DNA of 55,324 nucleotides from a bacterium (GTDB lineage Bacteria; Bacillota_I; Bacilli_A; RF39; UBA660): NCBI GenBank assembly GCA_019421005.1, contig JAHZGA010000003.1, positions 1 to 55,324 of the forward strand, read 5' to 3'. The notes beneath the pieces are model-generated. The model made no database searches, was not told the DNA's origin, and was given only the letters and a program-made list of their open reading frames with translations. This document shows positions 4,876-44,089 of the stretch, piece by piece (the stretch's first letter is position 1; the number at the start of each line of letters is the position of its first letter). Position numbers and translations under genes: made by a program.

Positions 4876-5223
4876 AATATTTTATAAGCCATGTTCTGTA
4901 CCTATTTCTAGGCGACAAACATCTATCTATGAATTAAATTCATCCCATAACCAGTTCTTATTCCCAGTTATTAGGCTCCCCTACCATAATTTGGGTTTCT
5001 CGCTCGTGGGGTTTACCGCGTTCCACTTTTTTAATTTCTTAAAAAAATCGTCACTATGGCACTTTATGTCTAATTTGACCATATCAATGACTTAGGTCAT
5101 TTCGACGCCGTTAGTTAAAAACTACCATAAGTTATTTTTTCCTTATGCACGAACACTACCATCATCACAGATGGTGCGAGCATGGACTTTCCTCTATATT
5201 TCTATAGCGTTTGTCAAAATATT
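4876..5223 (-). ncRNA. rnpB: RNase P RNA, type B (Bacillus-like)
   Basis: The minus strand carries universal and type-B blocks: GAGGAAAGTCCATGCTCGCAC, AAAGTGCCATAGTGACG, GTGGAACGCGGTAAACCCCACGAGCGAGAAACCCAAAT..GGTAGGGG, ATAGATAGATG..TGTCGCC, ACAGAACATGGCTTA. P1 can form between AATATTTT (5' end) and AAAATATT (3' end). Ends are accurate to about 5 nt. Confidence 0.9.
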
Positions 5224-14540: not shown

Positions 14541-14566
14541 AAAAAAACTAAGAATTAAATTCTTAG
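14541..14566 (-). terminator. Intrinsic terminator of the rhodanese gene
   Basis: Minus strand CTAAGAAT-TTA-ATTCTTAG followed by T8. The stem includes the stop codon. Confidence 0.75.
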
Positions 14567-14853
14567 TTCATTAATATCCATCTTTCATATCCGCCTTCAA
14601 TATTAACAATTTTAAATCCTTGTTTTTCTAAAATCATAGCAATATTAACACTTGATTTACCTTTTTGACAATAAATATAATATGTATCATTTTTATTTAA
14701 ATATTTATTTGGATTTATTAATAATTTTTCTTGTGGAATATTTTTAGCTGTTGGAATATGGTTATTATTATATCTTTCAATTGATCTTATATCAATTATA
14801 TTAATTTGCCCCAACATTTTTTTTAAGTCGGATACCATTACACTACCTACCAT
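14563..14853 (-). CDS. Single-domain rhodanese-like sulfurtransferase
   Basis: Rhodanese layout with active-site loop CQKGKSS. SD AGGGTGA before the ATG at 14853. Confidence 0.85.
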   Translation of the reverse strand: MVGSVMVSDLKKMLGQINIIDIRSIERYNNNHIPTAKNIPQEKLLINPNKYLNKNDTYYIYCQKGKSSVNIAMILEKQGFKIVNIEGGYERWILMN

Positions 14854-14917: not shown

Positions 14918-16990
14918 TTAATAATCATCACTGAAGAAGTCATCAAATAGTTGATCATCAGTTACATAACCAGGTTCATGATGTTCTTGTTTAGGTTCAT
15001 TTTTAACTGTTGGTTTTGGTTCAATTGATGGTCTAATTTCAACTTTTGGCTGAATTTCAATTTTAGGTTTAATTTCTTGAACTGGTTTAGTATCTTTCTT
15101 AAGTTGATTTTCTCTTTTTTCTTCTTCCTCTAATTCAGCTATTCTAGCATCAATTTTCTTAACTAATGAGTCCATATCAAATTTATTATTTGATGATGAC
15201 ATACCTCCAAATGGAAACATAGGCGGTTTATCTGATAGAGATTCCATTTCTTGAACCATTTTACTAGCTCTATCTTTTCTTGCTTTTTCAACAAATCCTT
15301 TTAAGTCAAAAACATTTATTTTCTTTTTTTCTCTTTGAGGATAACTTGCTTTAGGATATTTTTTACCCCAAGCATTTTTATTTTCTAATTGCCAGTTGGG
15401 TGTTAGAACTGTTTTAAAAGGCATTTTCCTTAATCTCAAAACAATAACTGACCATTTTTTCATTCTTTGTAGGTCACTTACAGTTACTAGTGGTGTAGAT
15501 GAAGTTTTTTCCTTTTCTTTTGATTTTACTTCTCCACATAATTTACTAATTTCTTCTAGAGCCGCTAATTCTGTACTTATTAAGTAAATTATATTACCAC
15601 AGTTACCCCTAATGGTTTCAGCATTTTCTTTACCATAAACTTCATTTAATTGAGCAAAGTTTTGAATAATAAAGTTAAATCGTATTTTTCTACTTCGAGC
15701 AGCCGTTACCATAGTAGTTACATCTTTTAATGGTGGCATATTAGCAAACTCATCTAGAATAAAATTAGTTCTAAATGGTAATTTACCACCTAATTCTTGA
15801 GCTACGTCAATTAAAGTTTCATAACATTGTTTTATAAAGATTGTTACCAATGAATGGTATGTTTTCTTTTCATCTTGAACAACTAAAAAGACGGCTGTTT
15901 TTTTTCTACCTATATCTTTCATATCAAAATCACTATGAGATAACATTTCAGATAGATTTTCTCTTGATACAAATAATCTTATTTTTTGTCTAAATACAGA
16001 TAAAACACTATCTTTAGTATCTTTAGGAGCATTTATCGTGCTGGCGGCACTGGTATAAACAGTTGAGTTAGGATCCTTTTTTGAAAAGTATTCTTTTATT
16101 ATTGTTGAAGGTCCTAATTTTTCTTCACCAACCGTTGTCATTAAACTAATGCTATTTAGGTTAATTTCTTCTTCTTTGGCATCTTCAAATAGTCCTAGAG
16201 TACATGCTGAAAAATAATCAGCTGATGTTTTTTCCCAGAATGGATCTGAACCACTAGTTTTTTCATCATATAAAATATTTAAGGCTAAATCGTCTACTAG
16301 CTCATTAGCTTTATCAATATTTCCACTTTTATATAATTGATAAGGTAAAGTTAAAGGGTTCCAACAATTACCTTTTTGCGGATTACGGAAGTTTAATAAG
16401 ACAATATTGTAGCCTTTTTCCCTTAATTCATTCGCATTGTTTTCATATATTTCACCTTTAGGGTCGGTTATAATCATTGATTCGCCTTTTTTGGCCAAAA
16501 TTTTTACCATTGGCTGAACAAGCATTTCGGTTTTTCCACTTCCGGTTGAACCAATTATAACATTATGATATTCACTATCATCAACCCAAATTTTTTTTCC
16601 GTTATTTATTAAAGGAATACCAGCATATTGACTTACAGGCGCGCCTGGTAAAACCATTTTCAATTCTTTTTTCATTTCTTTAGGTTCTAGCCAATGGGTA
16701 TAATTACTTTCTTGTTTTTGTCCTACCTTAAACCCAACACCTTTTTCTCTTTCAAATATTTTTGATGATATTCCTGAAATTATAGCAATTAGAAAAACTA
16801 TAGTTATAATCAATGTAGTCCAAAAATATTCACCAGTAAATATTGGTAGCGGGTTTAGACCATGTAATTGACCAGTTCCTCCAAATGTTGTAATATTTAT
16901 AACACCTAATCCAACTATAAAAAATAAAACAATAGCAAATATAATAAAGGCTATTAAGTCTTGTTTTTTTACTCGAATTTTAAATTTCAT
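14918..16990 (-). CDS. Type IV coupling protein (VirD4/TraG family ATPase)
   Basis: Two N-terminal TM segments, Walker A GSTGSGKT and Walker B-like NFILDEFANMP. SD GGTGGG before the ATG at 16990 (track ORF starts at 17020). Confidence 0.9.
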   Translation of the reverse strand: MKFKIRVKKQDLIAFIIFAIVLFFIVGLGVINITTFGGTGQLHGLNPLPIFTGEYFWTTLIITIVFLIAIISGISSKIFEREKGVGFKVGQKQESNYTHWLEPKEMKKELKMVLPGAPVSQYAGIPLINNGKKIWVDDSEYHNVIIGSTGSGKTEMLVQPMVKILAKKGESMIITDPKGEIYENNANELREKGYNIVLLNFRNPQKGNCWNPLTLPYQLYKSGNIDKANELVDDLALNILYDEKTSGSDPFWEKTSADYFSACTLGLFEDAKEEEINLNSISLMTTVGEEKLGPSTIIKEYFSKKDPNSTVYTSAASTINAPKDTKDSVLSVFRQKIRLFVSRENLSEMLSHSDFDMKDIGRKKTAVFLVVQDEKKTYHSLVTIFIKQCYETLIDVAQELGGKLPFRTNFILDEFANMPPLKDVTTMVTAARSRKIRFNFIIQNFAQLNEVYGKENAETIRGNCGNIIYLISTELAALEEISKLCGEVKSKEKEKTSSTPLVTVSDLQRMKKWSVIVLRLRKMPFKTVLTPNWQLENKNAWGKKYPKASYPQREKKKINVFDLKGFVEKARKDRASKMVQEMESLSDKPPMFPFGGMSSSNNKFDMDSLVKKIDARIAELEEEEKRENQLKKDTKPVQEIKPKIEIQPKVEIRPSIEPKPTVKNEPKQEHHEPGYVTDDQLFDDFFSDDY

Positions 16991-17021
16991 TTTATCCCAC
17001 CTTTGCAAAGTGCTTATCAAT

Positions 17022-17050
17022 ATTATATCACAGTTTATAGTTTTTGTATT
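17022..17050 (-). promoter_or_regulatory. Candidate promoter of the coupling-protein gene (extended -10 TGATATAAT)
   Basis: TGATATAAT at 17030-22 with a weak -35 AATACA at 17050-45, about 25 nt upstream of the SD. Confidence 0.4.
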
Positions 17051-17239
17051 GATTTTAGTGTTACAATTAACAATTTTTTTTAATTTATTATTATCTATTT
17101 TATATAAAAAGATTAATATTAAAATTAATCTTTATAGGTCTAAACTATTTTTATTTAATAAAAATTCTTGAATTTTAATTTACTGTCATTGAAAATTTTT
17201 GCCATTTACGGCATTTTTTTTCAATGAATGTTATTTAAA

Positions 17240-17266
17240 AATATTAAAAAGAAGTCAACGACTTCC
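17240..17266 (-). terminator. Intrinsic terminator after the 211-aa gene, separating it from the coupling-protein gene
   Basis: Minus strand GAAGTC-GTT-GACTTC immediately after the stop, followed by TTTTTTAATATTTTT. Confidence 0.7.
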
Positions 17267-17902
17267 TTAATTCAAATATGATGTATCACACGGTACAATT
17301 GTTTCAAAATCATTGTTACTTAATTTATACAATCCATAACATAAAAATTTCCCATTAGAATCTTCTTCAGTTATTATTACACCATAATTTTTATTAAATT
17401 TAACAACATTAGTTAAAATGAATTTAATATTATTACTATTTATTTCGCTATATTTAAATGTTTTAATCTCTAATACTTCTTTATCAATATAATAAATAGC
17501 GGAAAATGATTTAGTATTTTTTTCTGTATCAACATTTGAAATGACAATAATTTGTTCTTTTTTTCTATCTTTATCAAAATCAAATGTAACTTTTTGATTA
17601 ATAACTAAATTGTCTAATTTAACATTGAGCTTTTTTTCAAAATATTCTCTATTAATTTCACTAATTTCATTTTCATTATAACTTACATTGTGAAGATTAT
17701 CACTATTATTTAATTTTTGTTTTACTTTTTCAACACCATCAGTAGTTAATTTTAATTTTCCTTCTTCTTTAACAACAGGAAAATAATCCTTAACTACCTT
17801 TTTGGTAGCTTTTGAAACTTGAGTTTGATTAGCAAATAATAAATACATTATTACTAAATATAAACTTAAAATTAATACAACAATAACGTAAGATTTTTTC
17901 AT
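17267..17902 (-). CDS. N-terminally anchored T4SS-associated protein, paralog of the upstream gene (VirB8-role candidate)
   Basis: One N-terminal TM (VIVVLILSLYLVIMYLLF). Shares NQKVTFDFDKDRKKEQ..., FSAIYYIDKEV and C-terminal CYGLYKL...PCD with the 256-aa neighbour. Confidence 0.55.
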   Translation of the reverse strand: MKKSYVIVVLILSLYLVIMYLLFANQTQVSKATKKVVKDYFPVVKEEGKLKLTTDGVEKVKQKLNNSDNLHNVSYNENEISEINREYFEKKLNVKLDNLVINQKVTFDFDKDRKKEQIIVISNVDTEKNTKSFSAIYYIDKEVLEIKTFKYSEINSNNIKFILTNVVKFNKNYGVIITEEDSNGKFLCYGLYKLSNNDFETIVPCDTSYLN

Positions 17903-17903
17903 T

Positions 17904-18674
17904 TTAGTCGCATGCCTTTACTTTTTTATATTTTCCATATTTCAATTGATAAACTTCATAACAATCAATACAGTTATTATCAAAACATGTTTTTTCAACA
18001 AAAATCTCATTTTTACCATTTTTCTTTAAATCTATAATATGTCCAAGTGAATAATTATATCCTTCATATGCCTCATAAATATCAACTATATCTTTAGCTA
18101 AAACCGAAACTTTGTTATTATCAACATAAATTACGAATGAAAATTTTGACTTTGCCTTTACATCATCATATGCATTTGCAATGAAATATAAAGTTTCATT
18201 TTTAGAATCCCCATCAAAATCTAAATTAATTTTTTGATTTAAACTAAATCCTTCGTATTTAGTTATATCATTATCTTTCAAAACATCATTTATAATTTGC
18301 AAATCATCTGAATTTAATTCATCTATCTTATATTCGGGAACGGTATATTTTCTATTACTTTTTATAGCAAATATAGGAGTTGATATTTTAATATATTTAT
18401 CATTTTTATCAAAAACATACCATTTATTTTGATAGAATTTTATTTTATAATTTCCCAAATGTCCATTGGAGTCATACACATCATAAATTTGATTATGGTA
18501 TAGGGAAGTATCATTACTTCCCATATCAACATAACCATTTTCATATTTTATTTTTCCATTTTCACCTAAAACAATATATGTTTTATTCTTAAATAATCCA
18601 AGACCAAAAATTAAAATCATTAATACTAAATACGCGATCAAAACAATACCAATAATTATATATTTTTTTTTCAT
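17904..18674 (-). CDS. N-terminally anchored T4SS-associated protein (VirB8-role candidate)
   Basis: One N-terminal TM and SD AGGTGA. Motifs NQKINLDFDGDSKNET, FSFVIYVDNNKV and CYEVYQL...ACD are shared with the 211-aa neighbour. Confidence 0.55.
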   Translation of the reverse strand: MKKKYIIIGIVLIAYLVLMILIFGLGLFKNKTYIVLGENGKIKYENGYVDMGSNDTSLYHNQIYDVYDSNGHLGNYKIKFYQNKWYVFDKNDKYIKISTPIFAIKSNRKYTVPEYKIDELNSDDLQIINDVLKDNDITKYEGFSLNQKINLDFDGDSKNETLYFIANAYDDVKAKSKFSFVIYVDNNKVSVLAKDIVDIYEAYEGYNYSLGHIIDLKKNGKNEIFVEKTCFDNNCIDCYEVYQLKYGKYKKVKACD

Positions 18675-18684
18675 ATTTTTTCAC

Positions 18685-21600
18685 CTAATCATTCTTTTTA
18701 TAAATTAATATACGATTACAAACAGATGGACCGTATTTAATGTCATTTAGTTTGGTTAATTTACTACCAGGATCAAACATATAAATTGTATCACCTTCAA
18801 CTTTATCAATTGCTACATAGTGACCAAATGATGGTTTAGCTGTTATAACTAAATAATAGTTTTGAGCAATTAATTCTTTAGCCTTATTAGCTACATCGCT
18901 CCAACTTTTCGGATTAAATCTATAATCATCAACAAATTCAAAATTAGGAGCAAGTCCGGTAAATCTTGGAGCATCCCAGTAAATACCATTACCATCAAAT
19001 CCACCATGAGCACTTAAGTGTGCGACAAATGTACCAGGATTTAAATTAGGTATTGTAACTTCAGTTCCTGATCTAGCGATTTGAATTGCAACTGATGTCG
19101 CTGCACATCCGATTTTACATATGCTAGATGAACCTAATGAATCATTAGACCATGACATTCCACACTGTTTCCAAGTTGCAAAATCTCCACTAGCTGTATA
19201 ATTACTTGGACCACATGCACTAGCTGTTGTACTATTAGAACTTTCTATAATCCATACACCATTGTTTATTTTTCCAACATAATTACTAGCTATAGTATCT
19301 TCTTTATAATATCCTGTTCTTTCACGACTAGCGGAATCCAAAACTTTGATCTGACCTTCTTCATTAATTGAAGATAAAACCACATAATGTCCGCCTGTTG
19401 TTGCCCATTTATCTGTTCCTGGATCCTGTTTATTATGATATTCAATACCATGGTAATCAATTCCTGTTTCGTTATCAACTAATGAGGCTATTATCATTTT
19501 ATTAGCCTTTAATGCTTCTTTAATCTTATTCATTATTTCTGCATTTGATGGTTTCGAAGAAACTGATCTATCCCATATTTTGGTAACATTGATACCAAAT
19601 TTTTCTTTTAATCCAGCATCAGAATAAATCTGCCATTTTGTTCCGCTATTAGGCACTCGATAATCAGTATTATTACATACCCAATCAGCTACTGTTACTG
19701 GTGTTATTGAAGGATTATTATTCAAAGTAGCAGCTGCCATAGCGATTGAGGTTATTGAACATCCACTTGTACTTATAGTAGCTGGATATTCATGACAAAC
19801 TTTTCCATTAGTTTCATATGATGCTATCATTGACTCACAATATGCATCATTATAATCATGTTGATTATAATATATATCCTCACTTGCTCTAGTAGAGGTT
19901 TGGGTTGAATTACTTGATGAACTATTTGAATTATCAGTTGAACCTGTGTTAGCTTTTATTGCATCCAAAGTTGGATTAGGATCAATTGGACTATTAGAAG
20001 AATCACGAACTTCAAAATGTAAATGATTTCCAGTAGATGTTCCTGTTGTACCAACTTTACCTATTTCTTGTCCACCATTTACATGGTCGCCTTCTTTTAC
20101 TAAATATTTAAGCATATGTGCATATAAAGTATAATATTGATAAGAACCATCACTTTGCTTATTATGACCTATTATAACGTTATTACCATAACCAGTTGTT
20201 AAACTTTGAACTCTAGTTACATCTCCGTCAGCAATTGCATAAATACTTGTTCCTTCTGCAGCGGCATAATCTATACCAGTATGCATTTTTCTTTTCTTTG
20301 ATATAGGATGGATTCTTTCACCATATGGAGATGAAATTCTTTTATAGTCTGTTATTGGTAAATGTGAAGATCCTGCAATACCTGCTATAAAATTATCTGA
20401 AGAAGCTGTACAATTAGATGTTATTTCTTTATCAGTCCCATAAAATGATTGCAAAGCAGCATAATAATCGCCACCAGAGCTTACAGTCGCAGCCCATTGA
20501 TTTTGACCACTCTTTTGAGTAAAATTAGTATAAAACATATTTCCAGTTCCGTCAACTAAAACTTGACCTGCTACTTGATCTAGATTATTTTCAAATGTCG
20601 TTAACGCATCACCTGTTAGACCACTTTTCCAGCCAGGAACACCTTGAACATATTCCGAAACTTTACCTCCACCTCTTGAACAACCATTTTTATAATCACA
20701 ATAAACTTGATCATTTTCACAAGCACGCATTCTTATTGTATTAGTTCCTTTTTGATATCCAACAAAACAGTCATATTGTTTAGATGGACACATCGCACCC
20801 CCGCGTGTAAATGCAAAAGTTCTTGCAGCAACCGCTTGAGCTTTTTGCACTTCAGGATCGGACTCCGAAGAAACTTCAGCATATACAACACCTTTAATAT
20901 AATCTTCTAAATCAAGCGTCATTAAAACAGTGCTATTACTTTTCTTTGTTGCATTACAATTTATTAACTCAACTTTTACATTGCTGACAGTTTGTCCATC
21001 AATATTATATGAACAGTTAGTTCCACCACTTGATAATTCACATTCATTTTTATCTTCAAACCAATATGTATAGGCATCTACCTGTTCATGGATATCATCA
21101 ATTATTTTTTGAATCTGATCTTCTTCATCATCTGCTCCTGGTGTATAATATGCACTTAAATATTTAGGAATATATTCATCCCTTAAGTAATCATCGTATG
21201 CTGAATTTTCATCAGCACAATTTCCTTGTTCCATTGCTTTAACTAATTTTTTAGTTCTTTTTTTCACATCTTTTAAAACATCATCTGATTGTTCACCCTC
21301 TGATTGTTCTTCATCTGTTTGCTCTTCTTCGTATGTATATTCACTTTCTTCATCATATATCTTATCTAAACTATCATCATAATTTAGTGTTGCCAATAAC
21401 AGTTTCATGTTTAAACCATTTGAACAACTTGATTTTTCATTATATTTCTGAAGTTTCTCCATGAATTTAGCTTGATTGGAATCTTTAGGGGCAATATCTG
21501 TTATATCTTTATCATTACCTTTAAACCATTCAATAACAGAATATATTGGTTCCATTTTTGCATACAATGATTCACTTAATACAAAAATACTTAAGAATAT

Positions 21601-22182
21601 AACTATTAAAGCAATTAAAATTATAATAAGTGGCAATAATTTTTTTAAAAGTAACATCATTCTAACTTTACCACTTATTGAATCATTTTTTGCTGGACCT
21701 TTATTTCCAAATAAACCTAAATTTTTAAATATGCCATTTTCTTTAGATAACCCTTCTTTATTGGGTAACCCCTTTTCATTGGGTAATTCTTCTTTTGATA
21801 GCTCACTATTTTTAGAACTTCCAGTATTATTTCCACTAGGATTATTTTTTTTATTTGGTGCTCCTCTTCTAAAATTAGTTAATCTATCAGCTTTATCTAA
21901 AAGTCCTTTATTATTAGCTTTTTCTAAAGCTTTAGACGCTAACGGATTTCTATTTATAGTCTTACCAGATGTATCTAGAATTTTTTTACCGGCTTTTGTT
22001 TTAGAGGCTATATCAACCGCTTTACCACCTAAAGCCCCTCCAAAATATGTACCAGCAGCTTTAGCTCCTAATTTAGCAGCTTTAGCTCCAGCTTCTTGTT
22101 TAGACTGTTTTTTAGCTGCTTTAGGATCTACTTCTTGTTGAGGATTAACCTCTCGATCATTTATATTATTATCATTTGGCAT
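18685..22182 (-). CDS. Multi-domain membrane-anchored peptidoglycan hydrolase (VirB1 role): SpoIID-like + M23 + two papain-fold (C39-like) Cys peptidase domains
   Basis: 1165 aa with a TM at aa 174-203. SpoIID-like EVQKAQAVAARTFAFTR...DQVY. M23 HTGIDYAA...GNHLHFEV. Two Cys/His modules: SGCSITSIAMAA...GGHYVVL and CKIGCAATSVAI...FGHYVAID. SD AGGTGAGG. Confidence 0.85.
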   Translation of the reverse strand: MPNDNNINDREVNPQQEVDPKAAKKQSKQEAGAKAAKLGAKAAGTYFGGALGGKAVDIASKTKAGKKILDTSGKTINRNPLASKALEKANNKGLLDKADRLTNFRRGAPNKKNNPSGNNTGSSKNSELSKEELPNEKGLPNKEGLSKENGIFKNLGLFGNKGPAKNDSISGKVRMMLLLKKLLPLIIILIALIVIFLSIFVLSESLYAKMEPIYSVIEWFKGNDKDITDIAPKDSNQAKFMEKLQKYNEKSSCSNGLNMKLLLATLNYDDSLDKIYDEESEYTYEEEQTDEEQSEGEQSDDVLKDVKKRTKKLVKAMEQGNCADENSAYDDYLRDEYIPKYLSAYYTPGADDEEDQIQKIIDDIHEQVDAYTYWFEDKNECELSSGGTNCSYNIDGQTVSNVKVELINCNATKKSNSTVLMTLDLEDYIKGVVYAEVSSESDPEVQKAQAVAARTFAFTRGGAMCPSKQYDCFVGYQKGTNTIRMRACENDQVYCDYKNGCSRGGGKVSEYVQGVPGWKSGLTGDALTTFENNLDQVAGQVLVDGTGNMFYTNFTQKSGQNQWAATVSSGGDYYAALQSFYGTDKEITSNCTASSDNFIAGIAGSSHLPITDYKRISSPYGERIHPISKKRKMHTGIDYAAAEGTSIYAIADGDVTRVQSLTTGYGNNVIIGHNKQSDGSYQYYTLYAHMLKYLVKEGDHVNGGQEIGKVGTTGTSTGNHLHFEVRDSSNSPIDPNPTLDAIKANTGSTDNSNSSSSNSTQTSTRASEDIYYNQHDYNDAYCESMIASYETNGKVCHEYPATISTSGCSITSIAMAAATLNNNPSITPVTVADWVCNNTDYRVPNSGTKWQIYSDAGLKEKFGINVTKIWDRSVSSKPSNAEIMNKIKEALKANKMIIASLVDNETGIDYHGIEYHNKQDPGTDKWATTGGHYVVLSSINEEGQIKVLDSASRERTGYYKEDTIASNYVGKINNGVWIIESSNSTTASACGPSNYTASGDFATWKQCGMSWSNDSLGSSSICKIGCAATSVAIQIARSGTEVTIPNLNPGTFVAHLSAHGGFDGNGIYWDAPRFTGLAPNFEFVDDYRFNPKSWSDVANKAKELIAQNYYLVITAKPSFGHYVAIDKVEGDTIYMFDPGSKLTKLNDIKYGPSVCNRILIYKKND

Positions 22183-22202
22183 ATCCTCACCTACTTCTTA
22201 TT

Positions 22203-23987
22203 TTAATATCCCCCACCTGAACCAAAAGAATCTAATTCTTGTTCAGTTACAACAACTTCTATTTGCATTCTTCTACTACCGCATACAAATAAAGCTTCAC
22301 CTTGATTATATCTTTTTATATTTTCTCTTTCATTATCATTTAAGTCAATTAATTTTGATAAATCTTCAACTGCTTGTTTTTTTAGTCCCATAACTAAATA
22401 ATATGAAGCATTATCAAATATAGCTTTTCCTTGAGTTATTACAGAAGGATCACTGAAATCACTTGGTTGTTGAGTTATAATCATTGTACCTGTATTATAT
22501 TTTCTCGAACGTCTTTGGATTTGAGCCAAGAAATCTGCTCCTAGCTTATTTCCACCACTCATTAAAACATGAGCTTCATCAACCATTAAAATAGTATTTA
22601 TTGTTCTATCTAAAGTTAGTCCCCATGCATATTTTAATATATTGAAGAACAAAGCATTTCTAACATTTTCATCAGCATTCATTAATTCTTTTATATTAAA
22701 TACAATAAAATCACTATTAGGACTTATAGTTGTATGACCATCAAAATAATATCTTAATTCTTTAACAATCGGTCTTACTTTTAGTTCCAATTTTTCCATA
22801 ATATCACGTTCATGAGTTTTTTCAGTCATTGATAATAATCTACCCTTAATTGTTGCATATACATCAGTAAAAGTTGGATAATCTTTAGAGGTAAATTTAG
22901 TAAAATCAGTTGAAAAATCCATTCCAAAACGTCTATATGTTTCTTGAATTATCTCACTGAAAAGTGTTACTACATCATCTTCAACATCAGGTGAATAATA
23001 TTTAAAAAATGCTTTAGATGTTTGTAATGCTCTTGTTAAAACAGCATAGCCTAATCCTTGTTTAGCCTCTTCTTCATCATAATCCAAGACTACTTCCAAA
23101 GGATTGACCATTCCATATTCTCCACCTTTTCCTAAATCGATATAATCTCCACCATATAATTTTACCATCTCATCTAATTCACCTTCAGGATCAATTACAA
23201 TAATTTGATGATTATTTCTTATATGAGTTCTCAATACTAATTTAGCAGCTGTAGATTTACCTGAACCAGATGTACCTAAAATTATCATATTGGCATTATT
23301 TCTATTATGCTCTTTTTTTATTTGATATAAAAATTGATTAAATAAAATTACTCCGCCTGAAAAATCAACTCCAAGTAAACAAGATAATCCTGGGTCTTTT
23401 ATACTATCAAAAACAAAAGGATACATGGCTGCTAAAGTTGGTGCTGGAATTGGAGTTCCTATATGATCTTCAATTGCTTGTTTTGGATAAATTGGTAGAA
23501 TAGATTTTAAAACTTTTTCTTGTTCAAAACGAAGTGGAAAAGCTCGCATTTCCATTGCTTCAACATAGTTTTTAACTTGTAATTTTTTGGCTATCAACTC
23601 ATCTTCAGAATTAGCTGTAATCATAATATGTAATTGAAAATCATATATTTTAGATTGATTAGCTGCTAATTGAGAGATGAATTGTTCCAAAGATTCATAA
23701 TCTTGTCTAATCATTTCTTGTCTAGTTCTATCATACTCTTCAGTATATTTTACCTTTAAATCTGCAATTTCTTTATTTAACATCTTTTGAATAACACTGA
23801 AAGGTAGAGGAATATGTTTTGCAACAACCTTAATACCTGACATTTGAGTTAATGATGATAAATATCCAGTATTTATGTATTTTGGATAAGAAACAACCGT
23901 TAAGATAGTTGCATATTTATCACTTATTATAAATTCACTAGGTTTAAATTCTAAACCTTTAGGGGCAATTTCCTTTTTTATATTCAT
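22203..23987 (-). CDS. VirB4-family T4SS ATPase (TraE/TcpF/PrgJ-like), lacking the usual N-terminal ~180 aa
   Basis: Walker A GTSGSGKST and Walker B ILMVDEAH. The entry APKGLEFKPSEFIISDKYATILTVVSYP is typical of the region after the N-terminal domain in Gram-positive VirB4 proteins. Confidence 0.9.
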   Translation of the reverse strand: MNIKKEIAPKGLEFKPSEFIISDKYATILTVVSYPKYINTGYLSSLTQMSGIKVVAKHIPLPFSVIQKMLNKEIADLKVKYTEEYDRTRQEMIRQDYESLEQFISQLAANQSKIYDFQLHIMITANSEDELIAKKLQVKNYVEAMEMRAFPLRFEQEKVLKSILPIYPKQAIEDHIGTPIPAPTLAAMYPFVFDSIKDPGLSCLLGVDFSGGVILFNQFLYQIKKEHNRNNANMIILGTSGSGKSTAAKLVLRTHIRNNHQIIVIDPEGELDEMVKLYGGDYIDLGKGGEYGMVNPLEVVLDYDEEEAKQGLGYAVLTRALQTSKAFFKYYSPDVEDDVVTLFSEIIQETYRRFGMDFSTDFTKFTSKDYPTFTDVYATIKGRLLSMTEKTHERDIMEKLELKVRPIVKELRYYFDGHTTISPNSDFIVFNIKELMNADENVRNALFFNILKYAWGLTLDRTINTILMVDEAHVLMSGGNKLGADFLAQIQRRSRKYNTGTMIITQQPSDFSDPSVITQGKAIFDNASYYLVMGLKKQAVEDLSKLIDLNDNERENIKRYNQGEALFVCGSRRMQIEVVVTEQELDSFGSGGGY

Positions 23988-24532
23988 CCTATCACCGTCC
24001 CAAAATTAGTTGTTTGTCCAGCGTTTAAGAAATTATCCAAAATAAGTCTTAAATCTTCATTTGTTACTTGATGTGAATTTAATCCAGCATTTGCTAAACT
24101 TGTAATTAAATTTCTTAATTTTTTTCCTATTAATTCTTGATCCTTTTCTTTAAATAAAATAAAGTATTCTGTATCAGCAACATTATTGCTAATAAACATT
24201 CCTATTTTATTAATATCTTCATTTATCATTTTTCTTCTTATAGGGTCATTAGTGTTATTAAACAGTAGTTGTAGTTCAGCTTGATAAGCATTTATATCTA
24301 CTGGTCTATCTGCTACAACTAACCAAAATTCATAGTCAATTTGATTATAAACATTTTTTAGATTATCTATTACTGCCATTTGAGTGCTATAATCACTTAT
24401 GAAAATATTTCTTGGTAATATTTTCACACCAGTTACATTTAATCTATTATCTAATAAAATCATTCCATTATTAATTGCTCTTACAGGAATATCATCAACT
24501 GTATATTTACTTCTTACTTTTTTTTCTGACAT
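23984..24532 (-). CDS. VirB4 N-terminal-domain-like protein (separate ORF, ATGA overlap with the ATPase ORF)
   Basis: 182 aa from the ATG at 24532. DDIPVRAINNGMILLDNRLNVTGVKILPRNIF...EFWLVVADRPVDI resembles the N-terminal module of full-length Gram-positive VirB4 proteins. Its stop TGA overlaps the next ATG. Confidence 0.65.
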   Translation of the reverse strand: MSEKKVRSKYTVDDIPVRAINNGMILLDNRLNVTGVKILPRNIFISDYSTQMAVIDNLKNVYNQIDYEFWLVVADRPVDINAYQAELQLLFNNTNDPIRRKMINEDINKIGMFISNNVADTEYFILFKEKDQELIGKKLRNLITSLANAGLNSHQVTNEDLRLILDNFLNAGQTTNFGTVIG

Positions 24533-24827
24533 CGTAATAACTCCAACCTTTCCATTCAAATTTTTGATTATTAGTATAAAAATCAATTATAGCTTTTAAA
24601 ATAGTTAACATATTATGATAATTAGGAACTGGTAATACCAGAAATCCTGTTATTAATCCTGGGGCAATTGCTAGTAGCGCAACTGTTAAACTTTTTAGAG
24701 GTAAGACTAGTAATAATATAAAAGTTACTACTAGTCCACTTCCAAATAAAATTAAATCAAATTTATTAAACAAACCAAATATTAGCATTGATTTTTTACT
24801 ATTAGCTGGAATTAAATATCCATTCAT
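24507..24827 (-). CDS. PrgI/VirB3-like small membrane protein
   Basis: 106 aa from the ATG at 24827 (SD AGGTGAT). YLIPANSKKSMLIFGLFNKFDLILFGSGL followed by two TM segments. It sits directly upstream of VirB4, as in other Gram-positive T4SS. Confidence 0.6.
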   Translation of the reverse strand: MNGYLIPANSKKSMLIFGLFNKFDLILFGSGLVVTFILLLVLPLKSLTVALLAIAPGLITGFLVLPVPNYHNMLTILKAIIDFYTNNQKFEWKGWSYYDVRKKSKK

Positions 24828-24892
24828 TAGTATCACCTATCCTTTTTATCTATTTTTTCAAAATACAAAGTGTTTATAACAGATCTAATTTA

Positions 24893-26809
24893 TTACTGTT
24901 GTTGTCTTCCTCTATTAGCTGGGTTATTAGGACTATTCTCCCATTCAACTCTTGCATCAGCGTTCATTAAACGTGCGTCTCTTTCAGTAATCTGTTGATC
25001 TGATCCAGTTCCCGTATTTCGATTGTTACTATTATTATTATTATTTACATTAGAATTAATTCCTTGAAAATCACTATCAGTTGCGAGATCTGCCATTGCC
25101 CTATCAGCTTTTCTTATATCTGCTTTGGCACTCTCATCAATTCTAAATTGAGTTTTTATTGAATTAATTTGATCACTATAAACATTCGCCATAGATTTAT
25201 ATCTAGCAGCTTTACCAAATAATCTTTCTGCTTCGCTTTGATTTCCAGACTGTGCTGCTTGTTCAGCTTGAGCCCTAAAAAGATCTGCCGCATTCGATGC
25301 TGTATTTCTTTTTTCCTTTAAAACATCCATTTCAGCTTTAGCTCCTTTTTTTCCACCTAAAGTGTCGTAAACAGACCACGTTTTAAAATCCTTACCGAAC
25401 ATTCCTTTTGCTACGTTATTAGCACCTTTAGAAAACGATCCAAAGAACCCATCTTTTTCAGTTACACCTTTATGTCCAGTAAGTAGTCCTCCAACAGCAC
25501 CTCTAAATGCATGACCAGATTCTTTACCATATTTGGCGCCTGCATAAACTGCTCCAGCTGTTCCAACTGTTTTAGCAACACCAGGAACAGATGCTAATTT
25601 CTTGCTAGGGTTTAAAGTAAATCCGCCATCTAATTTAACGCCTATGATATTTTCAATTAATTTAGGTAATTGTTTTGCAAATAATAATGCTCCAAAAATT
25701 ATAAATATATAGATTAAGGAATTATGAATAAATCCACCACTTTGATCGGATACATCACCTTTAACATTAATATACATTTCAGGTAACATTTGAACAACAT
25801 ATAATGCAAAGAAAATAGCAATTAATCTTATAAACAAATCAAAATATGTTGTTAAGCATTGCTTTACCCATTTTTTAAAAATTCCACTACTTTTTGGCTC
25901 AGCATATGTAACAATAGGAATAGGTGCAATTAATTGTAAAAATGCTAACTTAACCAATCGTACAGCTATATCAAAACAAAACATAACCAATATCCAGGCT
26001 AAAAATCCGCCAGCTATTAAAGCCATAATTCCATGAAAATTAAACGTTGCTACCTTTTCGCCATCAATTTCTGATTTTGCTTTTATAATATCTGTATCAG
26101 TCAAAATATTGATATTCGTATCCTGATAAGCATATGATAATACATCAGAAATTTGTCCATCAAATGATGTACCAGTTGCAGCATTCAAAACTTCAGCGCA
26201 TTCATCTCTCATTACTAAATCTGAATTGCCTATATCATGCTTTGAATCAATTACCTCTCTTATATCAGAATTATCAGCTCCACTAAAAAGGTTATAACGA
26301 CATTCTTTGTTCTCGTCACTATTAAATATTGCAGGATTTGGTCCATAAAAAACTGATAAAGTCATAAAAGCCATATATTCTCCTTCGCTTTCGTAAGAAA
26401 TTACATCTCCTTGTTCCTCTTGACCAGCACCTAAAAAGAAATTAGGTATAACATTATTGGTCAAAATTAACCTTTGAATTTTCATTCCCATATCAAAGAT
26501 AAATGGTATTGAAACTAGTAAAATTAGCACAACACAAATATTCAAAACCAACTTTCCAATACCCTTATTCTTATCAGTAAACAAATCAGGATTTACTATA
26601 TAAGATATAAGTGAAAAAGTTAATTTAAATAACATTAATATTGCCAAAAGAACATATATTCTTGAACTGAAATCAGAAAATTGACTTTCAGTAAATAGTT
26701 CAACATTGGTTAAATCTATCAACAAATCATAAGCTTTTTCAGCAAACCAGAATACTGTGTTATCAAGCCATAAGAAGACTTGTTGAATTAAGGTAAGTCC
26801 CGAAAACAT
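24893..26809 (-). CDS. VirB6-like polytopic membrane protein with a long G/A/K/N/Q-rich C-terminal tail
   Basis: 638 aa with at least six hydrophobic segments and one large loop. The tail is about 230 aa and hydrophilic. SD GAGAGGTGA. The position between pilin genes and VirB3/VirB4 is typical. Confidence 0.65.
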   Translation of the reverse strand: MFSGLTLIQQVFLWLDNTVFWFAEKAYDLLIDLTNVELFTESQFSDFSSRIYVLLAILMLFKLTFSLISYIVNPDLFTDKNKGIGKLVLNICVVLILLVSIPFIFDMGMKIQRLILTNNVIPNFFLGAGQEEQGDVISYESEGEYMAFMTLSVFYGPNPAIFNSDENKECRYNLFSGADNSDIREVIDSKHDIGNSDLVMRDECAEVLNAATGTSFDGQISDVLSYAYQDTNINILTDTDIIKAKSEIDGEKVATFNFHGIMALIAGGFLAWILVMFCFDIAVRLVKLAFLQLIAPIPIVTYAEPKSSGIFKKWVKQCLTTYFDLFIRLIAIFFALYVVQMLPEMYINVKGDVSDQSGGFIHNSLIYIFIIFGALLFAKQLPKLIENIIGVKLDGGFTLNPSKKLASVPGVAKTVGTAGAVYAGAKYGKESGHAFRGAVGGLLTGHKGVTEKDGFFGSFSKGANNVAKGMFGKDFKTWSVYDTLGGKKGAKAEMDVLKEKRNTASNAADLFRAQAEQAAQSGNQSEAERLFGKAARYKSMANVYSDQINSIKTQFRIDESAKADIRKADRAMADLATDSDFQGINSNVNNNNNSNNRNTGTGSDQQITERDARLMNADARVEWENSPNNPANRGRQQQ

Positions 26810-26822
26810 TTAATCACCTCTC

Positions 26823-27707
26823 TTAATAATCAGTTTTCACACCGCAAAAGATACTATCTTTATCAACATTATCGAAATCTATTTGAGTTAATACGAACTT
26901 AACTAATAGCGGTAATAATAATAATAACGCTAAAGCTACTATACGTCTAATAAAATTTTTCCAAGCTTTTTTCATCCCGTCATCTTTAGCGCCAGTAACA
27001 GCTCCTATAAAATCTTTTATTCCTAAAATCATTGTTAAAACGAATGCTGCAACAATAGCTAAATATAAAACTTTACTTATTTCATCGGCAACCTCTTTTG
27101 GAACCAATCCACACCCTTCTACCATTTCAGCAGTAGTGTTAGATTGTGGCTTATTACTATCTTTAACATACTTCTTTTTAAAATCTTCAATAGTTCTATC
27201 GCCTTGTCGATTATCATCCGCATCATCAGCATTTTTCCCACCAGATACAGCTGCAAAATTATAATATTTACATTTGTTTTTATCATCACCACAATACTTT
27301 TTCAATGTAGAACTAGGATTTTTTTTTGTTCCAGCTCCCAAATATCCTACTGAATTAACTTTTCCAGTTATTCCGCTTGAAGTTTGAGTATCAACCGTTA
27401 ACATCAGTTTAGGACATTTTTTATTCTTTAGCACCCATTCTTCAATTGATTTTTGGTTTTTTTCATCCAACGAAACACTATATCCACTACCTGGAGTAAG
27501 TGTAGTTTCTATTTTTTTTCCACCATTTGTTGCTTCAAACCTTACTCTGTGATATATTTCATGAATAACCTCATAATCACAAGCAATTGCTGCATATTTT
27601 TCTCCTTCAACAGAAAATATATTATTATTTTCATCACCTTTTACATTACCAATAAATAGAAATGAAAAAGCTATAATTATAAATCCTAATAAAATATTTT
27701 TTTTCAT
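26823..27707 (-). CDS. Secreted Cys-containing domain fused to a C-terminal VirB2-like two-TM pilin module
   Basis: Signal peptide MKKNILLGFIIIAFSFLFIGNVKG and a domain of about 170 aa. The following CG..TM..KDDGMKKAWKNFIRRI..TM..C module aligns with the two small pilin-like proteins. SD GAGGAGTG. Confidence 0.6.
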   Translation of the reverse strand: MKKNILLGFIIIAFSFLFIGNVKGDENNNIFSVEGEKYAAIACDYEVIHEIYHRVRFEATNGGKKIETTLTPGSGYSVSLDEKNQKSIEEWVLKNKKCPKLMLTVDTQTSSGITGKVNSVGYLGAGTKKNPSSTLKKYCGDDKNKCKYYNFAAVSGGKNADDADDNRQGDRTIEDFKKKYVKDSNKPQSNTTAEMVEGCGLVPKEVADEISKVLYLAIVAAFVLTMILGIKDFIGAVTGAKDDGMKKAWKNFIRRIVALALLLLLPLLVKFVLTQIDFDNVDKDSIFCGVKTDY

Positions 27708-27814
27708 TTATATCACTCCTCGTAATATAATAATTACAATTATACATAATATATTATAACATAAAAAAAAGCAATAATATATACCTTATTATCACTTTTT
27801 TATTTTTGTTATAT

Positions 27815-28138
27815 TTATGCTTTTAAAATTTTATCAATACATTCAACAATATTACTTGAAGTTCCACCTTCAACAACTAAACCTACAACAAACTTAACAA
27901 TAACTACTACGAAGAATACAATTAAAGCCGCCAACAGTCTTGATAGAAAAGTTTTCCAACCTTTTTTTATATCATCTTCTTTTTGTTGAATAACAGCTTT
28001 TCCTAAATCTAACATTCCCCAGACAATTAATAAAATAGGAACACCTATATATATAAAGTTTATTACCATCGCTACTATATGTGCCAGTTGTTGAGGAATA
28101 CTAACTCCATCTCCACACGAAATATCTAATATAAACAT
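27815..28138 (-). CDS. VirB2/TrbC-like pilin-type protein, paralog 2
   Basis: 107 aa with two TM segments separated by the basic loop QQKEDDIKKGWKTFLSR. SD GAGGAGG. Shares YIGVPILLIVWGMLDLGKA with paralog 1. Confidence 0.6.
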   Translation of the reverse strand: MFILDISCGDGVSIPQQLAHIVAMVINFIYIGVPILLIVWGMLDLGKAVIQQKEDDIKKGWKTFLSRLLAALIVFFVVVIVKFVVGLVVEGGTSSNIVECIDKILKA

Positions 28139-28164
28139 AATTAAACCTCCTCGTTTCTAAATAT

Positions 28165-28193
28165 ATCTTACTTTAATTTTAAATATTTGTCAA
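28165..28193 (-). promoter_or_regulatory. Candidate internal promoter before pilin paralog 2 (TTGACA-17-TAAGAT), -35 inside a 7-bp inverted repeat
   Basis: TTGACA at 28193-88 and TAAGAT at 28170-65. tgtcaat (28188-94) and attgaca (28208-14) form an inverted repeat overlapping the -35. Confidence 0.45.
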
Positions 28194-28255
28194 TATAATA
28201 ATTTAAAATTGACACTTATTTACTTAATTTATCATTATATTATTCATTATTTTAT

Positions 28256-28576
28256 TTAATAATCAATTAACTTATCAACGCATTCCGAAACACCATACAT
28301 TCCTGGTAAATCTGCTTTAGCTAAAATTCCTAAAACAAATTCTACTGCTACTGCTATAAAAAATACTAAAACAGCACTTAATAAACGTTTAAAAAACATT
28401 TTTTGGTGTTTCTTAATTTCATCTTCTTTCTGACTAATAGTTGCTTTTCCTAAATCTAACATTCCCCAAACAATTAATAAAATAGGAACACCTATATAAA
28501 AAGCCTTAATTAACATACTTACAATAACAGCTATTGTTTCTGGAATAGTAAAAGTTCCACAAGTAATATCTAGCAT
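28256..28576 (-). CDS. VirB2/TrbC-like pilin-type protein, paralog 1
   Basis: 106 aa with two TM segments, a basic loop SQKEDEIKKHQKMFFKR and SD GAAGGAGGG. It is the first gene of the cluster. Confidence 0.6.
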   Translation of the reverse strand: MLDITCGTFTIPETIAVIVSMLIKAFYIGVPILLIVWGMLDLGKATISQKEDEIKKHQKMFFKRLLSAVLVFFIAVAVEFVLGILAKADLPGMYGVSECVDKLIDY

Positions 28577-28596
28577 AGTAACCCTCCTTCAATAAT

Positions 28597-28625
28597 ATTA
28601 TACTCATGTTTTAATCATAAATCAA
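28597..28625 (-). promoter_or_regulatory. Candidate promoter of the T4SS cluster (TTGATT-17-TATAAT)
   Basis: TTGATT at 28625-20, 17-nt spacer, TATAAT at 28602-28597, about 20 nt upstream of the SD of the first pilin gene. Confidence 0.45.
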
Positions 28626-34652: not shown

Positions 34653-36128
34653 TTATAAAACAATGGCAAATAAGTTTCCAGAACCTTTATTAACCAATTT
34701 GGTTAAAGTTTGTTGTAATTTAAATCTAGCATTATCCGGCATCAAAGAAAGTTTGGCTTGTATTCCCTCTTTTACAATTACATCTAAACTTCTTCCAAAA
34801 ATTTCGCTTTTCCAAATATTATCAGGCGAAGTATCATAATCACGCATTAAATAGTCAATTAACTCTTTACTTTGAATTTCTGAACCAATTATCGGCTCAA
34901 ATGTACTTTCAACATCTACCCTAATCATATGTATTGATGGGGCAACAGCTTTTAATTTTATTCCATATCTACTACCTTGTTTAATTATTTCAGGTGTATC
35001 AAGTTTCATATCGGCTAAAGTTGGCGCTGCAACTCCATAACCTGTTTGTTTTACCATTTTAAGTGCCTCTTTAATTTGATCATATTCCATTTTAGCTTCA
35101 TTGTAATCTTGAAATAAAGTTAATAATTGTGATCTATTTGTTATATCAACACCTATTATTTCTTTTAATACTTGATTATATAATCCTTTAGGAGCATCTA
35201 AATTCAATGTTACTTCTCCTGTTGAAGTGTTAACTTCTGATAAATATGATTTTTCTATATACTCACAATCTTTAAAATAATTTTGGATATTTTCAATATC
35301 CCTTAACTTATCAATTTCTACTACACTTTCTTTTATTTTTTCTATATAAATTTTTTTCAACCAATTATCTTTAGATAAGCATGCTATCCAATCAGGCATA
35401 TTAACATTAACTTGAGTAACTGGAAATTCATATAATGCTTCTCTTAATATTGAATAAATATCTCTTTCTGTCATATTTTCAACACTTATTGGCATAACAG
35501 GTACTTTGTAATTATCATGTAATTCTTCTGCTAATCTTTCAGTTTCTGGTAACATTGGATGAGTTGAATTTAATAAAACTATAAATGGTTTTCCTATTTC
35601 AGTTAATTCATTAATAACTCTTTGTTCAGCCTCAACATAATTTGATCTATTTATCTCTCCTATTGTACCATCAGTTGTAATAACTATTCCTATTGAAGAG
35701 TGATCCTTAATAACTTTTTCTGTTCCTATTTCAGCAGCTTCAACAAATGGTATTTCTTCATCATACCATGGTGTCTTAACCATTCTAGGTCCATTTTCAT
35801 CTTCATATCCTTTCGCGCCATCAATAACATATCCAACACAGTCAACTAATCTTATATTAGCATCAAATGTATCTATATTAATTTTAGCAGCATTACTTGG
35901 TACAAATTTAGGTTCAATTGTCATAATTGTTTTCCCTTGAGCTGTTTGAGGTATTTCATCCAAAGCTCTTTTACGTTCGTATTCATCAGCAATATTAGGT
36001 ACAACTAAATTTTCAATGACTTTTTTTATAAAGGTTGACTTGCCAGTTCTAACGGCACCTACTACTCCAAAATAAATATCGCCATTGGTTCGTTCTGTTA
36101 AACTTTTAATAATGTCTAATTTATCCAT
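34653..36128 (-). CDS. spoIVA: Stage IV sporulation protein A (spore coat morphogenetic ATPase)
   Basis: MDKLDIIKSLTERTNGDIYFGVVGAVRTGKSTFIKK matches the SpoIVA N-terminus and Walker A. The ATG at 36128 was chosen over the track start 36155, which has no SD and sits at or upstream of the predicted transcription start. Confidence 0.9.
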   Translation of the reverse strand: MDKLDIIKSLTERTNGDIYFGVVGAVRTGKSTFIKKVIENLVVPNIADEYERKRALDEIPQTAQGKTIMTIEPKFVPSNAAKINIDTFDANIRLVDCVGYVIDGAKGYEDENGPRMVKTPWYDEEIPFVEAAEIGTEKVIKDHSSIGIVITTDGTIGEINRSNYVEAEQRVINELTEIGKPFIVLLNSTHPMLPETERLAEELHDNYKVPVMPISVENMTERDIYSILREALYEFPVTQVNVNMPDWIACLSKDNWLKKIYIEKIKESVVEIDKLRDIENIQNYFKDCEYIEKSYLSEVNTSTGEVTLNLDAPKGLYNQVLKEIIGVDITNRSQLLTLFQDYNEAKMEYDQIKEALKMVKQTGYGVAAPTLADMKLDTPEIIKQGSRYGIKLKAVAPSIHMIRVDVESTFEPIIGSEIQSKELIDYLMRDYDTSPDNIWKSEIFGRSLDVIVKEGIQAKLSLMPDNARFKLQQTLTKLVNKGSGNLFAIVL

Positions 36129-36158
36129 ATAATCCCTACTTTCATATTGTTTCATTAA

Positions 36159-43811: not shown

Positions 43812-44063
43812 TTAAGTCAATACTTTTTCACGATTTTCTTTAGATTTATTATTAACAATGTCTTGTCTTTTTATAGGTTTTATATTACTTTTATTTGTTT
43901 CTTTTATCTCTTCAAAAGCGTAATATTTTTTGATTATTTTAATTATCTCATCATTATCTTTTTTAGTAATAGTTCCTGTTTCAGTATTTTTGACACTTCT
44001 TCTTGCTTTTTTAGATTTGTTTTTATCATTACTTAAATGTAATGAATAAGATAATTCTTCCAT
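43812..44063 (-). CDS. Hypothetical small basic protein (83 aa)
   Basis: ORF from the ATG at 44063 (MEELSYSLHL...). Lys-rich, with a weak SD and no recognisable domain. Confidence 0.35.
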   Translation of the reverse strand: MEELSYSLHLSNDKNKSKKARRSVKNTETGTITKKDNDEIIKIIKKYYAFEEIKETNKSNIKPIKRQDIVNNKSKENREKVLT

Positions 44064-44089
44064 ATTTTTATTACCCACTTTAAGATGTA

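Follow-up and report, generated by a model that had tools for sequence, protein, structure and literature searches.

In the Patescibacteria/Saccharibacteria, a chromosomal type IV secretion system (T4SS; SEML1_0006-0019 in Southlakia epibionticum) is essential for epibiotic growth (PMC10633639, PMC12102498, PMC12857230). A 2025 review of T4SSs describes the Patescibacteria as the sole exception, unique among monoderms, to the rule that Gram-positive T4SSs lack VirB2-type pilins (PMC12857230). The T4SS locus described here appears to be a second VirB2-bearing case, inside the Bacillota and with close mobile relatives for comparison. It lies in a stretch of 55,324 nucleotides (positions 1 to 55,324 of contig JAHZGA010000003.1, assembly GCA_019421005.1; hereafter the window) from a bacterium of the order RF39, in which analysis of open reading frames (ORFs) resolved eleven intact genes, head to tail on the minus strand, at 14918-28576. 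The analysis covers this 55-kb window of the source genome, and the absences reported below apply to the window or to the cluster. We consider it probable, judging from sequence comparison, that these genes encode a complete, functional monoderm T4SS of the mating-pair-formation type MPF-FATA, one that was acquired from a conjugative element no later than the origin of RF39 and has since been inherited vertically as a chromosomal locus. Searches of the literature on RF39 together with T4SS, VirB4, pili or conjugation found no description of such a system; their coverage was incomplete, so novelty is unproven.

The Patescibacteria T4SS is the closest analogue of the RF39 system. In both, a whole lineage with reduced genomes carries an MPF-FATA-derived T4SS as a fixed part of the chromosome, with no relaxase in cis, and both have arrays of divergent VirB2-like pilins (PF18895), VirB1-, VirB3-, VirB4- and VirB6-like parts and an accompanying type IV-like pilus system; for both, co-option from conjugation is the inferred origin. 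The RF39 system differs in its host, a member of the Bacillota (class Bacilli). Its VirD4 coupling protein is always present and conserved, with a distinctive tail, whereas S. epibionticum has no recognisable coupling protein (Wang et al. 2023, PMC10633639). It also differs in having VirB4 split in two, a conserved rhodanese neighbour and no VirB8-like part that we could find.

The nearest mobile relative found is an integrative and conjugative element (ICE) of Thomasclavelia ramosa (Erysipelotrichales; loci L168/L169). In the same order as in the RF39 locus, it encodes VirB6, a 121-aa protein, a 225-aa N-terminal VirB4 protein (VirB4-N) and a 606-aa C-terminal one (VirB4-C), the last two overlapping by 4 nt, and then a hydrolase and two proteins of about 200-250 aa. 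Unlike the RF39 locus, it carries a serine recombinase, the single-stranded-DNA-binding protein SSB, a Toprim primase and sortase-dependent pili, and it sits at an element boundary; the RF39 locus has VirB2-like pilins instead. The ICEs of Mycoplasma (MICE) provide the best-scoring curated models (NF045975 for VirB4, NF045889 for the VirB6-like protein), and they too represent a minimal T4SS of a bacterium from the same broad lineage whose genome is reduced. They differ in their single VirB4 of about 890 aa, against whose family cutoff RF39 falls short (362 vs 590 bits), in their DDE transposase and CDS14 lipoprotein, in being patchy and mobile, and in a host without wall, hydrolase or pilins. 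In MICE/Mycoplasma chromosomal transfer, DNA is moved without a canonical Hfr/oriT mechanism (PMC6819513). Further parallels are Helicobacter pylori ComB, the gonococcal genetic island (GGI) of Neisseria and 89K of Streptococcus suis, chromosomal T4SSs repurposed for DNA uptake, DNA release and Gram-positive effector export. The GGI, unlike the RF39 locus, keeps a relaxase and ParA/ParB, and 89K is a strain-specific pathogenicity island; none of the three is order-wide core, and no relatedness to the RF39 T4SS was detected beyond generic ATPase families.

Of the features tested that define an ICE, the RF39 locus has only the apparatus. An initial annotation of the window, made from its sequence, had proposed that the cluster lacks relaxase, integrase, replication and partition genes, and this was borne out: profile scans found no such domain in the cluster or in the scanned unannotated ORFs of the window, nor the recombinase domains PF00589, PF00239 and PF07508. 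Its further statement that no recombinase is present holds for the cluster, but the window does contain DDE transposases at least 21 kb away. As stated there too, no tRNA or att repeat marks the edges: no tRNA was found in the whole window, and the only direct repeats at the boundaries were short AT-rich chance matches. In the Pfam-annotated neighbourhoods of relatives no relaxase was found in cis, and the genes beyond the cluster were housekeeping genes (RmuC, RNase R, SmpB, pyrG, hup, cca). From about 80 species we also scanned 118 rare neighbour ORFs, taking one for each cluster. These match 83 families, among them glycolytic enzymes, tRNA synthetases, RpoA and further pilins and hydrolases; the 25 commonest of the families include no relaxase or integrase. 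The VirB4 locus is single-copy among the matches.

No known ICE or plasmid was found to carry the same gene set with high identity. The best VirB4 match among 72,556 plasmids is 30% identical, and VirB4-C of the T. ramosa ICE is 33% identical. At 50% identity the RF39 VirB4 proteins collapse into one representative, the next relatives of which, on short anonymous contigs, stand at 42% and 40%, followed by sequences at 34% or less; the next relatives that carry names are Erysipelotrichales and a Mycoplasmatota plasmid. By its content, the locus looks like an ICE module stripped of its DNA-processing and integration genes.

At least 558 genomes (one genome per GTDB species) encode a relative of the 594-aa VirB4-C query, a number that is a lower bound of genomes with a match and not a fraction of RF39 species; identity is 76-93% among the best 80. 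VirB4-C matches more than 7,000 clusters formed at 90% identity, and a length of 594 aa is almost universal among the top 120 of those listed. The matching genomes carry names such as uncultured Bacilli, Tenericutes, Mollicutes and 'Acholeplasma sp. CAG:878'. Candidatus Faecisoma (CAG-878), Ca. Coprosoma (CAG-822) and Ca. Faecenecus (CAG-988) have all been assigned to RF39 by their describers (PMC8035907). Going by such names, the named relatives all place the system in the uncultured gut order RF39.

Gene order is kept across the 88 loci that we compared, running from the pilins through the pilin fusion, VirB6, the VirB3-like protein, VirB4-N, VirB4-C, the hydrolase and one or two anchored proteins to VirD4 and a rhodanese. 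The initial annotation had treated the rhodanese gene (14563-14853, minus strand; a single-domain protein of 96 aa, PF00581, E value 9e-20) as a mere flank; it is instead a conserved neighbour of the cluster. It is found in 56 loci, in most of them 41-100 nt beyond virD4, and keeps this place whether pyrG follows, as here, or rmuC, as in other species. Its active-site motif YCxxGxxS is at least 90% conserved, and the catalytic Cys is kept. Downstream of the rhodanese, most lineages have RmuC (a neighbour in 44 loci) and a DUF2238 protein.

At the other end, most RF39 species have a co-directional Tad/VirB11-type pilus module directly 5' of the pilins. It consists of a CpaB-like protein (TIGR03177, 3e-7), a VirB11/TadA-family ATPase (TIGR02788, 6.8e-34; TIGR03819, 1.7e-31; PF00437, 2.3e-27; ComGA, 1.4e-22), two polytopic membrane proteins, a prepilin-like protein (about 80 aa) and three further proteins, two measuring about 150 aa and the third about 310-330 aa. 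The module is present in the closest relatives of the window, L001/L172 and L164 (VirB4-C 91-93% identical), and occupies positions 1-5259 of L164, 1-5314 of L172 and 1-5207 of L166. Within the 55-kb window, tblastn found no trace of the module or of RmuC, and ligA stands in the place of the module, which may be elsewhere in the source genome or lost. The junction of ligA and the pilins, on which the initial annotation had remarked, is real: it is reproduced in an independent assembly of the same species (L170, 94.8% nucleotide identity), and it is lineage-specific. Read from this comparison of gene order, the ancestral neighbours are the pilus module upstream and rhodanese-RmuC downstream, and ligA and pyrG are derived. 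The event behind the locus is ancient and order-wide rather than specific to this genome.

The divergence of the motor follows that of core genes. Distances of VirB4-C correlate with those of PyrG (CTP synthase) at r=0.83, a value that rests on 11 genomes, the PyrG and VirB4 scans having shared 8 assemblies; VirB4-C is the slower of the two (mean 0.19 vs 0.24). Against the flanking RmuC, r is 0.71 over 41 loci (mean 0.18 vs 0.27). The G+C content of the cluster (0.289) is level with that of pyrG (0.29), ligA (0.28) and also recA. We computed the ratio of nonsynonymous to synonymous substitution rates (dN/dS) for the window against its two nearest relatives, L001 and L164, with dS about 0.7-1.2 and similar for T4SS genes and pyrG. 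VirB4-C gave 0.05-0.08, VirB4-N 0.10 and VirD4 0.12-0.14, next to 0.08-0.11 for pyrG. The genes for the anchored proteins anc1 and anc2, the hydrolase, VirB6 and the pilin fusion gave 0.36-0.74, and within the exposed parts the values were 0.40-0.67 for anc2 and 0.47-0.66 for the pilin fusion.

A similar partition is seen between strains. The flanking and motor proteins of L170 are 97-100% identical to those of the window, and the first pilin is 100% identical; the second pilin is 71%, the pilin fusion 36% and VirB6 63% identical. The variable stretch forms a hypervariable cassette (window 24893-28138 vs L170 2022-5534) inside an otherwise near-clonal locus, a pattern suggestive of cassette exchange or of diversifying selection. 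Whatever these exposed parts meet seems itself to vary, and could be host immunity, phages specific to the pilus, or target cells.

The initial annotation had proposed either that the transfer module of a former ICE was domesticated here or that the T4SS has some task besides its own transfer. These results support domestication, through order-wide conservation, core-like divergence, purifying selection, housekeeping context and the lack of a close plasmid counterpart. Most of its gene-level claims also stood. The eleven co-directional minus-strand ORFs are all intact, a Shine-Dalgarno-like AGGAGG or GGTGA motif precedes essentially every start, and the T4SS roles that it assigned have strong support from hidden Markov models (HMMs) for VirD4, both parts of VirB4 and the hydrolase, and weak but consistent support for the VirB6-like and PrgI-like proteins. 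The window, with a G+C content of about 25.6%, yields long open reading frames in the standard genetic code. The likely true starts are 16990 for VirD4, 24532 for VirB4-N and 24827 for the PrgI-like protein. An Rfam scan found no match in the cluster.

The VirB4 ATPase of the initial annotation, with its Walker A motif GTSGSGKST, was confirmed as such but not as a single gene. It is encoded as two: the N-terminal domain as a separate 182-aa protein (23984-24532) and the C-terminal ATPase part of 594 aa (22203-23987), with an ATGA overlap between the VirB4-N stop codon and the VirB4-C start. VirB4-C matches positions 294-891 of NF045975 at 4.3e-108 and NF045971 at 4.5e-52, both below the equivalog cutoffs; its 362.2 bits against NF045975, the Mycoplasma ICE VirB4 family, compare with a curated cutoff of 590 and place it outside that family. 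It also matches PDB 4AG5 at 1.1e-56. VirB4-N covers positions 88-278 of the 894-position NF045975 (2e-13), and its orthologs match PF26593 (TraC-like). VirB4-N is a separate gene in 87 of the 88 loci, overlapping VirB4-C by 1 nt or 4 nt in 77 of these 87. We rejected a programmed frameshift joining the two parts as unlikely, because VirB4-C always starts with a conserved Met (in MDIKSQIA or MNIKKEIA) that sits at the upstream stop or no more than a few bases from it, and because the same two-gene layout is found in the related ICE. Since the T. ramosa ICE has this layout, the split is an inherited trait of the T4SS lineage and not a sign of decay.

The VirD4 coupling protein (14918-16990; 690 aa from the ATG at 16990) has N-terminal transmembrane (TM) segments, the Walker A motif GSTGSGKT, a TrwB-type all-alpha domain and a variable linker. 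It matches PF02534 (1.8e-54), PF10412 (3.2e-25) and PF12696 (3.6e-25), and it scores 297.7 bits against NF045973, above the cutoff of 250. The linker shows no conservation between species. The last 15 or so residues do: the tail VTDDQLFDDFFSDDY (about 14921-14965) carries a near-invariant motif, (V/I)(T/S)DDQFFDDFFxD(D/E), in all but one of about 70 distinct C-termini listed, and resembles a peptide on which a conserved partner would dock. VirD4 and VirB4-C also match CedB and CedD weakly (5e-6 and 1e-11), in the P-loop regions alone and far below cutoffs. In some RF39 genomes we noticed a second, shorter VirD4 paralog of 411-473 aa (L124 12075-13496, L081 3487-4722, and in L104, L106 and L146), located at the head of the T4SS cluster or beside pyrG among core genes; the L124 copy matches NF045973 at 5.5e-59.

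The first short VirB2-like pilin (28256-28576; 106 aa) is predicted to form a two-TM hairpin; it has an AGGAGG Shine-Dalgarno motif and, in the family alignment, invariant Cys6, Gly38 and Asp41. The second (27815-28138; 107 aa) is its tandem paralog, the two genes sharing a direct repeat (D1; 143 nt, 78% identity). A third module forms the C-terminus of the pilin fusion (26823-27707; 294 aa), behind a signal peptide and a variable Cys-containing ectodomain. The initial annotation had named three VirB2-like pilin modules, and these do belong to one family, 24 of whose 72 scanned members match PF18895 (T4SS_pilin; best 1.7e-6) and one PF04956 (TrbC/VirB2). The assignment rests on the family, as the short pilins of the window fall individually below detection; in the fusion, PF18895 matches residues 206-272 with an E value of 6e-4, below the gathering cutoff. 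Each locus has one to four short pilins and a pilin fusion, which across the 88 loci measures 300-530 aa and runs from a signal peptide through a variable, Cys-rich ectodomain to the pilin module at its C-terminus; proteins in the same position in other species share this architecture but not the sequence of the ectodomain. Just 5' of the first pilin gene lies a sigma-70-like promoter candidate (TTGATT-17-TATAAT; 28597-28625, minus strand), a consensus match and weak as evidence, promoter-like sites being no commoner in this region than in shuffled sequence.

The VirB6-like polytopic membrane protein (24893-26809; 638 aa) combines a large, variable ectodomain with a C-terminal tail of low complexity. 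It matches NF045889 (Mbov_0396; 1.7e-9) and NF045848 (7e-10), both below cutoff, and its orthologs weakly match PF19597 (TrbL_4); its position is kept in 81 of the 88 loci and its topology is conserved. The PrgI/VirB3-like small membrane protein (24507-24827, extended to 24836 by the ORF finder; 106 aa) is likewise conserved in position and topology, lying directly 5' of VirB4-N in 84 of the 88 loci. Its weak match to PF26592 (PrgI_like) was obtained on orthologs that are 97-99% identical.

The VirB1 role falls to a membrane-anchored multidomain peptidoglycan hydrolase of 1165 aa (18685-22182), with SpoIID (PF08486, 2e-12), M23 (PF01551, 4e-29) and C39-like (PF13529, 3e-7) domains; the domain set varies between species and includes CHAP, GH25, glucosaminidase and M23. 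Beside it are the anchored ectoproteins anc2 (17904-18674; 256 aa), with an N-terminal TM helix and a beta-rich domain containing a DxDxDGxxE motif, and anc1 (17267-17902; 211 aa). That the two are paralogs, as first proposed, is upheld by BLASTP (27% identity over 124 aa, E value 6e-7). An AlphaFold2 model of anc2 built from a 7-sequence alignment (mean predicted local distance difference test, pLDDT, 83.7) has an N-terminal helix followed by a beta-rich domain; a single-sequence model, with a mean pLDDT of 43.6, was discarded. Foldseek of the model against PDB gave no match below an E value of 0.01 and none to VirB8/NTF2, TcpC or PrgL, and a 23-sequence anc2 family profile run against PDB sequences gave marginal matches to beta-propeller lyases, none of them relevant. 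We had considered anc1 and anc2 as VirB8-like subunits and rejected the idea because neither the model nor the profile supported it, anc1 being judged through its paralogy to anc2. The fold of anc2 may be undescribed. A search for anc2 homologs yielded only 5 proteins, because the family evolves fast.

Between anc1 and virD4 lies a 276-nt gap (16991-17266), at which a terminator-like hairpin is found (17248-17268, minus strand). The same gap in strain L170 (L170 13297-14541) holds an extra gene, for a 414-aa AAA_14/DUF4143 ATPase.

We propose that the split VirB4 and the PrgI/VirB3-like and VirB6-like proteins would form a membrane channel, that the large hydrolase would open the wall, and that the VirB2-like pilins, one of them with a variable ectodomain, would form or tip an extracellular fibre contacting another cell. 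VirD4 would recruit a cytoplasmic substrate into the channel, probably via a partner docking on its acidic-aromatic tail TDDQ(F/L)FDDFF. From an intact, vertically inherited locus with no relaxase or recombinase in cis we infer that such a machine would serve the cell and not the transfer of the element that encodes it. A function at the level of the organism is suggested because in hundreds of species no DNA-processing genes lie alongside, because VirB4 is more conserved than an essential enzyme, and because pilin arrays are otherwise known only from the Patescibacteria system. Tentatively and by analogy, we prefer to read the system as one that delivers cargo, protein or nucleoprotein, to cells nearby within a contact-dependent lifestyle like that proposed for Patescibacteria.

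Several points weigh against this interpretation. The cluster showed no candidate genes for effectors or immunity proteins, and the retained full VirD4, with its DNA-binding-type all-alpha domain and its TraG-D_C region, fits DNA transfer equally well. No VirB8-like part was found, which leaves the channel incomplete by current Gram-positive models. The absence of a relaxase holds for the 55-kb window and not for the whole genome. The distance pairs are non-independent, which makes the correlations descriptive, and dS is near saturation. The organism-level function itself is a prediction from sequence.

It is conceivable, though somewhat unlikely in our view, that the locus is a machine for exchanging chromosomal DNA, using either a relaxase in trans, from mobilisable elements or from another chromosomal site, or an oriT-independent distributive process like Mycoplasma chromosomal transfer. 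VirD4 keeps the TrwB all-alpha domain and the TraG-D_C region, and its invariant docking-like C-terminal tail recalls the tail of F-plasmid TraD, which binds TraM. The best-scoring VirB4 model belongs to the Mycoplasma ICE family (NF045975, 4.3e-108), and Mycoplasma ICE-type T4SSs also move chromosomal segments (PMC6819513, PMC12857230). The second, shorter VirD4 paralog of some RF39 genomes would fit as well, and so would the conserved neighbour rmuC, a DNA-recombination gene found in 44 loci, although its adjacency may be plain ancestral synteny. Yet no relaxase, oriT-like feature, SSB or primase appeared in about 80 neighbourhoods, a VirB4 more conserved than CTP synthase throughout the order would be unusual for a facultative sex apparatus, and arrays of VirB2-like pilins are atypical of Gram-positive conjugation (PMC12857230). 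If this were so, recombination would be a built-in capacity of RF39 populations. Competence-like DNA uptake, in which the T4SS and the pilus module would import DNA from the environment or from neighbours for nucleotides or repair in the manner of Helicobacter pylori ComB or archaeal Ced, seems very unlikely. It would suit a locus with no relaxase in hosts with reduced genomes and many auxotrophies (PMC12306168, citing earlier work), and the ATPase upstream in most species does match ComGA (1.4e-22) as well as TadA/VirB11; the locus in the window, however, has no pilus module. The CedB/CedD matches of VirD4 and VirB4-C also point this way, but they are confined to P-loop regions and far below cutoffs. 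VirD4 is strongly conserved in the RF39 system, whereas ComB systems are not known to have one. In Saccharibacteria, moreover, competence works through ComEC and type IV pili, and the essential role of the T4SS is separate from it (PMC12857230).

A still-mobile ICE or a recent remnant, its relaxase and recombinase divergent beyond recognition or outside the window and its IS21 or IS256 copy acting as a Mycoplasma-ICE-like DDE transposase, is largely refuted and hardly tenable. All of the closest characterised relatives are conjugative modules, but dozens of species share the locus together with its rhodanese-RmuC flank, its divergence matches that of core genes, it is single-copy among the matches and no boundary repeats were found. 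One might look to anc1 and anc2, which have no assigned function, for the missing enzymes, but they are membrane-anchored, extracytoplasmic, beta-rich proteins and not DNA enzymes. Insertion sequences (ISs) are present in the window, but 21 kb and many core genes separate the IS21 copy from the cluster. Going further than cargo delivery, RF39 might be obligately contact-dependent (episymbiotic or parasitic), with the T4SS and the usually adjacent pilus module as an essential interaction organ; the system would then be a Bacillota counterpart, possibly independently evolved, of the T4SS and type IV pilus pair of Saccharibacteria, and the hypervariable pilin fusion and VirB6 would set partner specificity. 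By analogy with Saccharibacteria this is a possibility, but an unlikely one.

Elsewhere in the window we noted an IS21 istA/istB pair (49622-51710) and a fragment of an IS256-like transposase comprising its C-terminus (190-645), both assigned by eye and not by HMM. They are the sole transposase-type genes in the window, at least 21 kb from the T4SS, and may relate to local rearrangements. Near the IS21 copy is a gene for a Fic/DOC-domain protein (52353-53090; PF02661, 2e-17). A class B RNase P RNA (4880-5222, minus strand; 296 bits) is consistent with a host of Bacillota/Mollicutes type. A 500-aa ORF beside der (34653-36155) was taken by eye for SpoIVA and not confirmed by HMM; a sporulation gene would be unexpected in a reduced-genome lineage. 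Two adjoining minus-strand ORFs of 402 and 120 aa (43812-45312) are rich in charged residues and have no Pfam match.

The RF39 locus provides a well-sampled case of T4SS domestication, with hundreds of species, an ICE relative that shares the split VirB4, and selection partitioned between motor and surface parts. It also carries a warning for annotation, since ICE finders keyed on VirB4 and a type IV coupling protein may miscall this core locus as a degenerate mobile element. RF39 bacteria are common in human and livestock guts and are known from metagenomes only, and the locus offers a testable handle on their biology. A conserved, inherited T4SS suggests that RF39 depends on direct contact with other cells; obligate dependence, if true, would explain the resistance of RF39 to cultivation.

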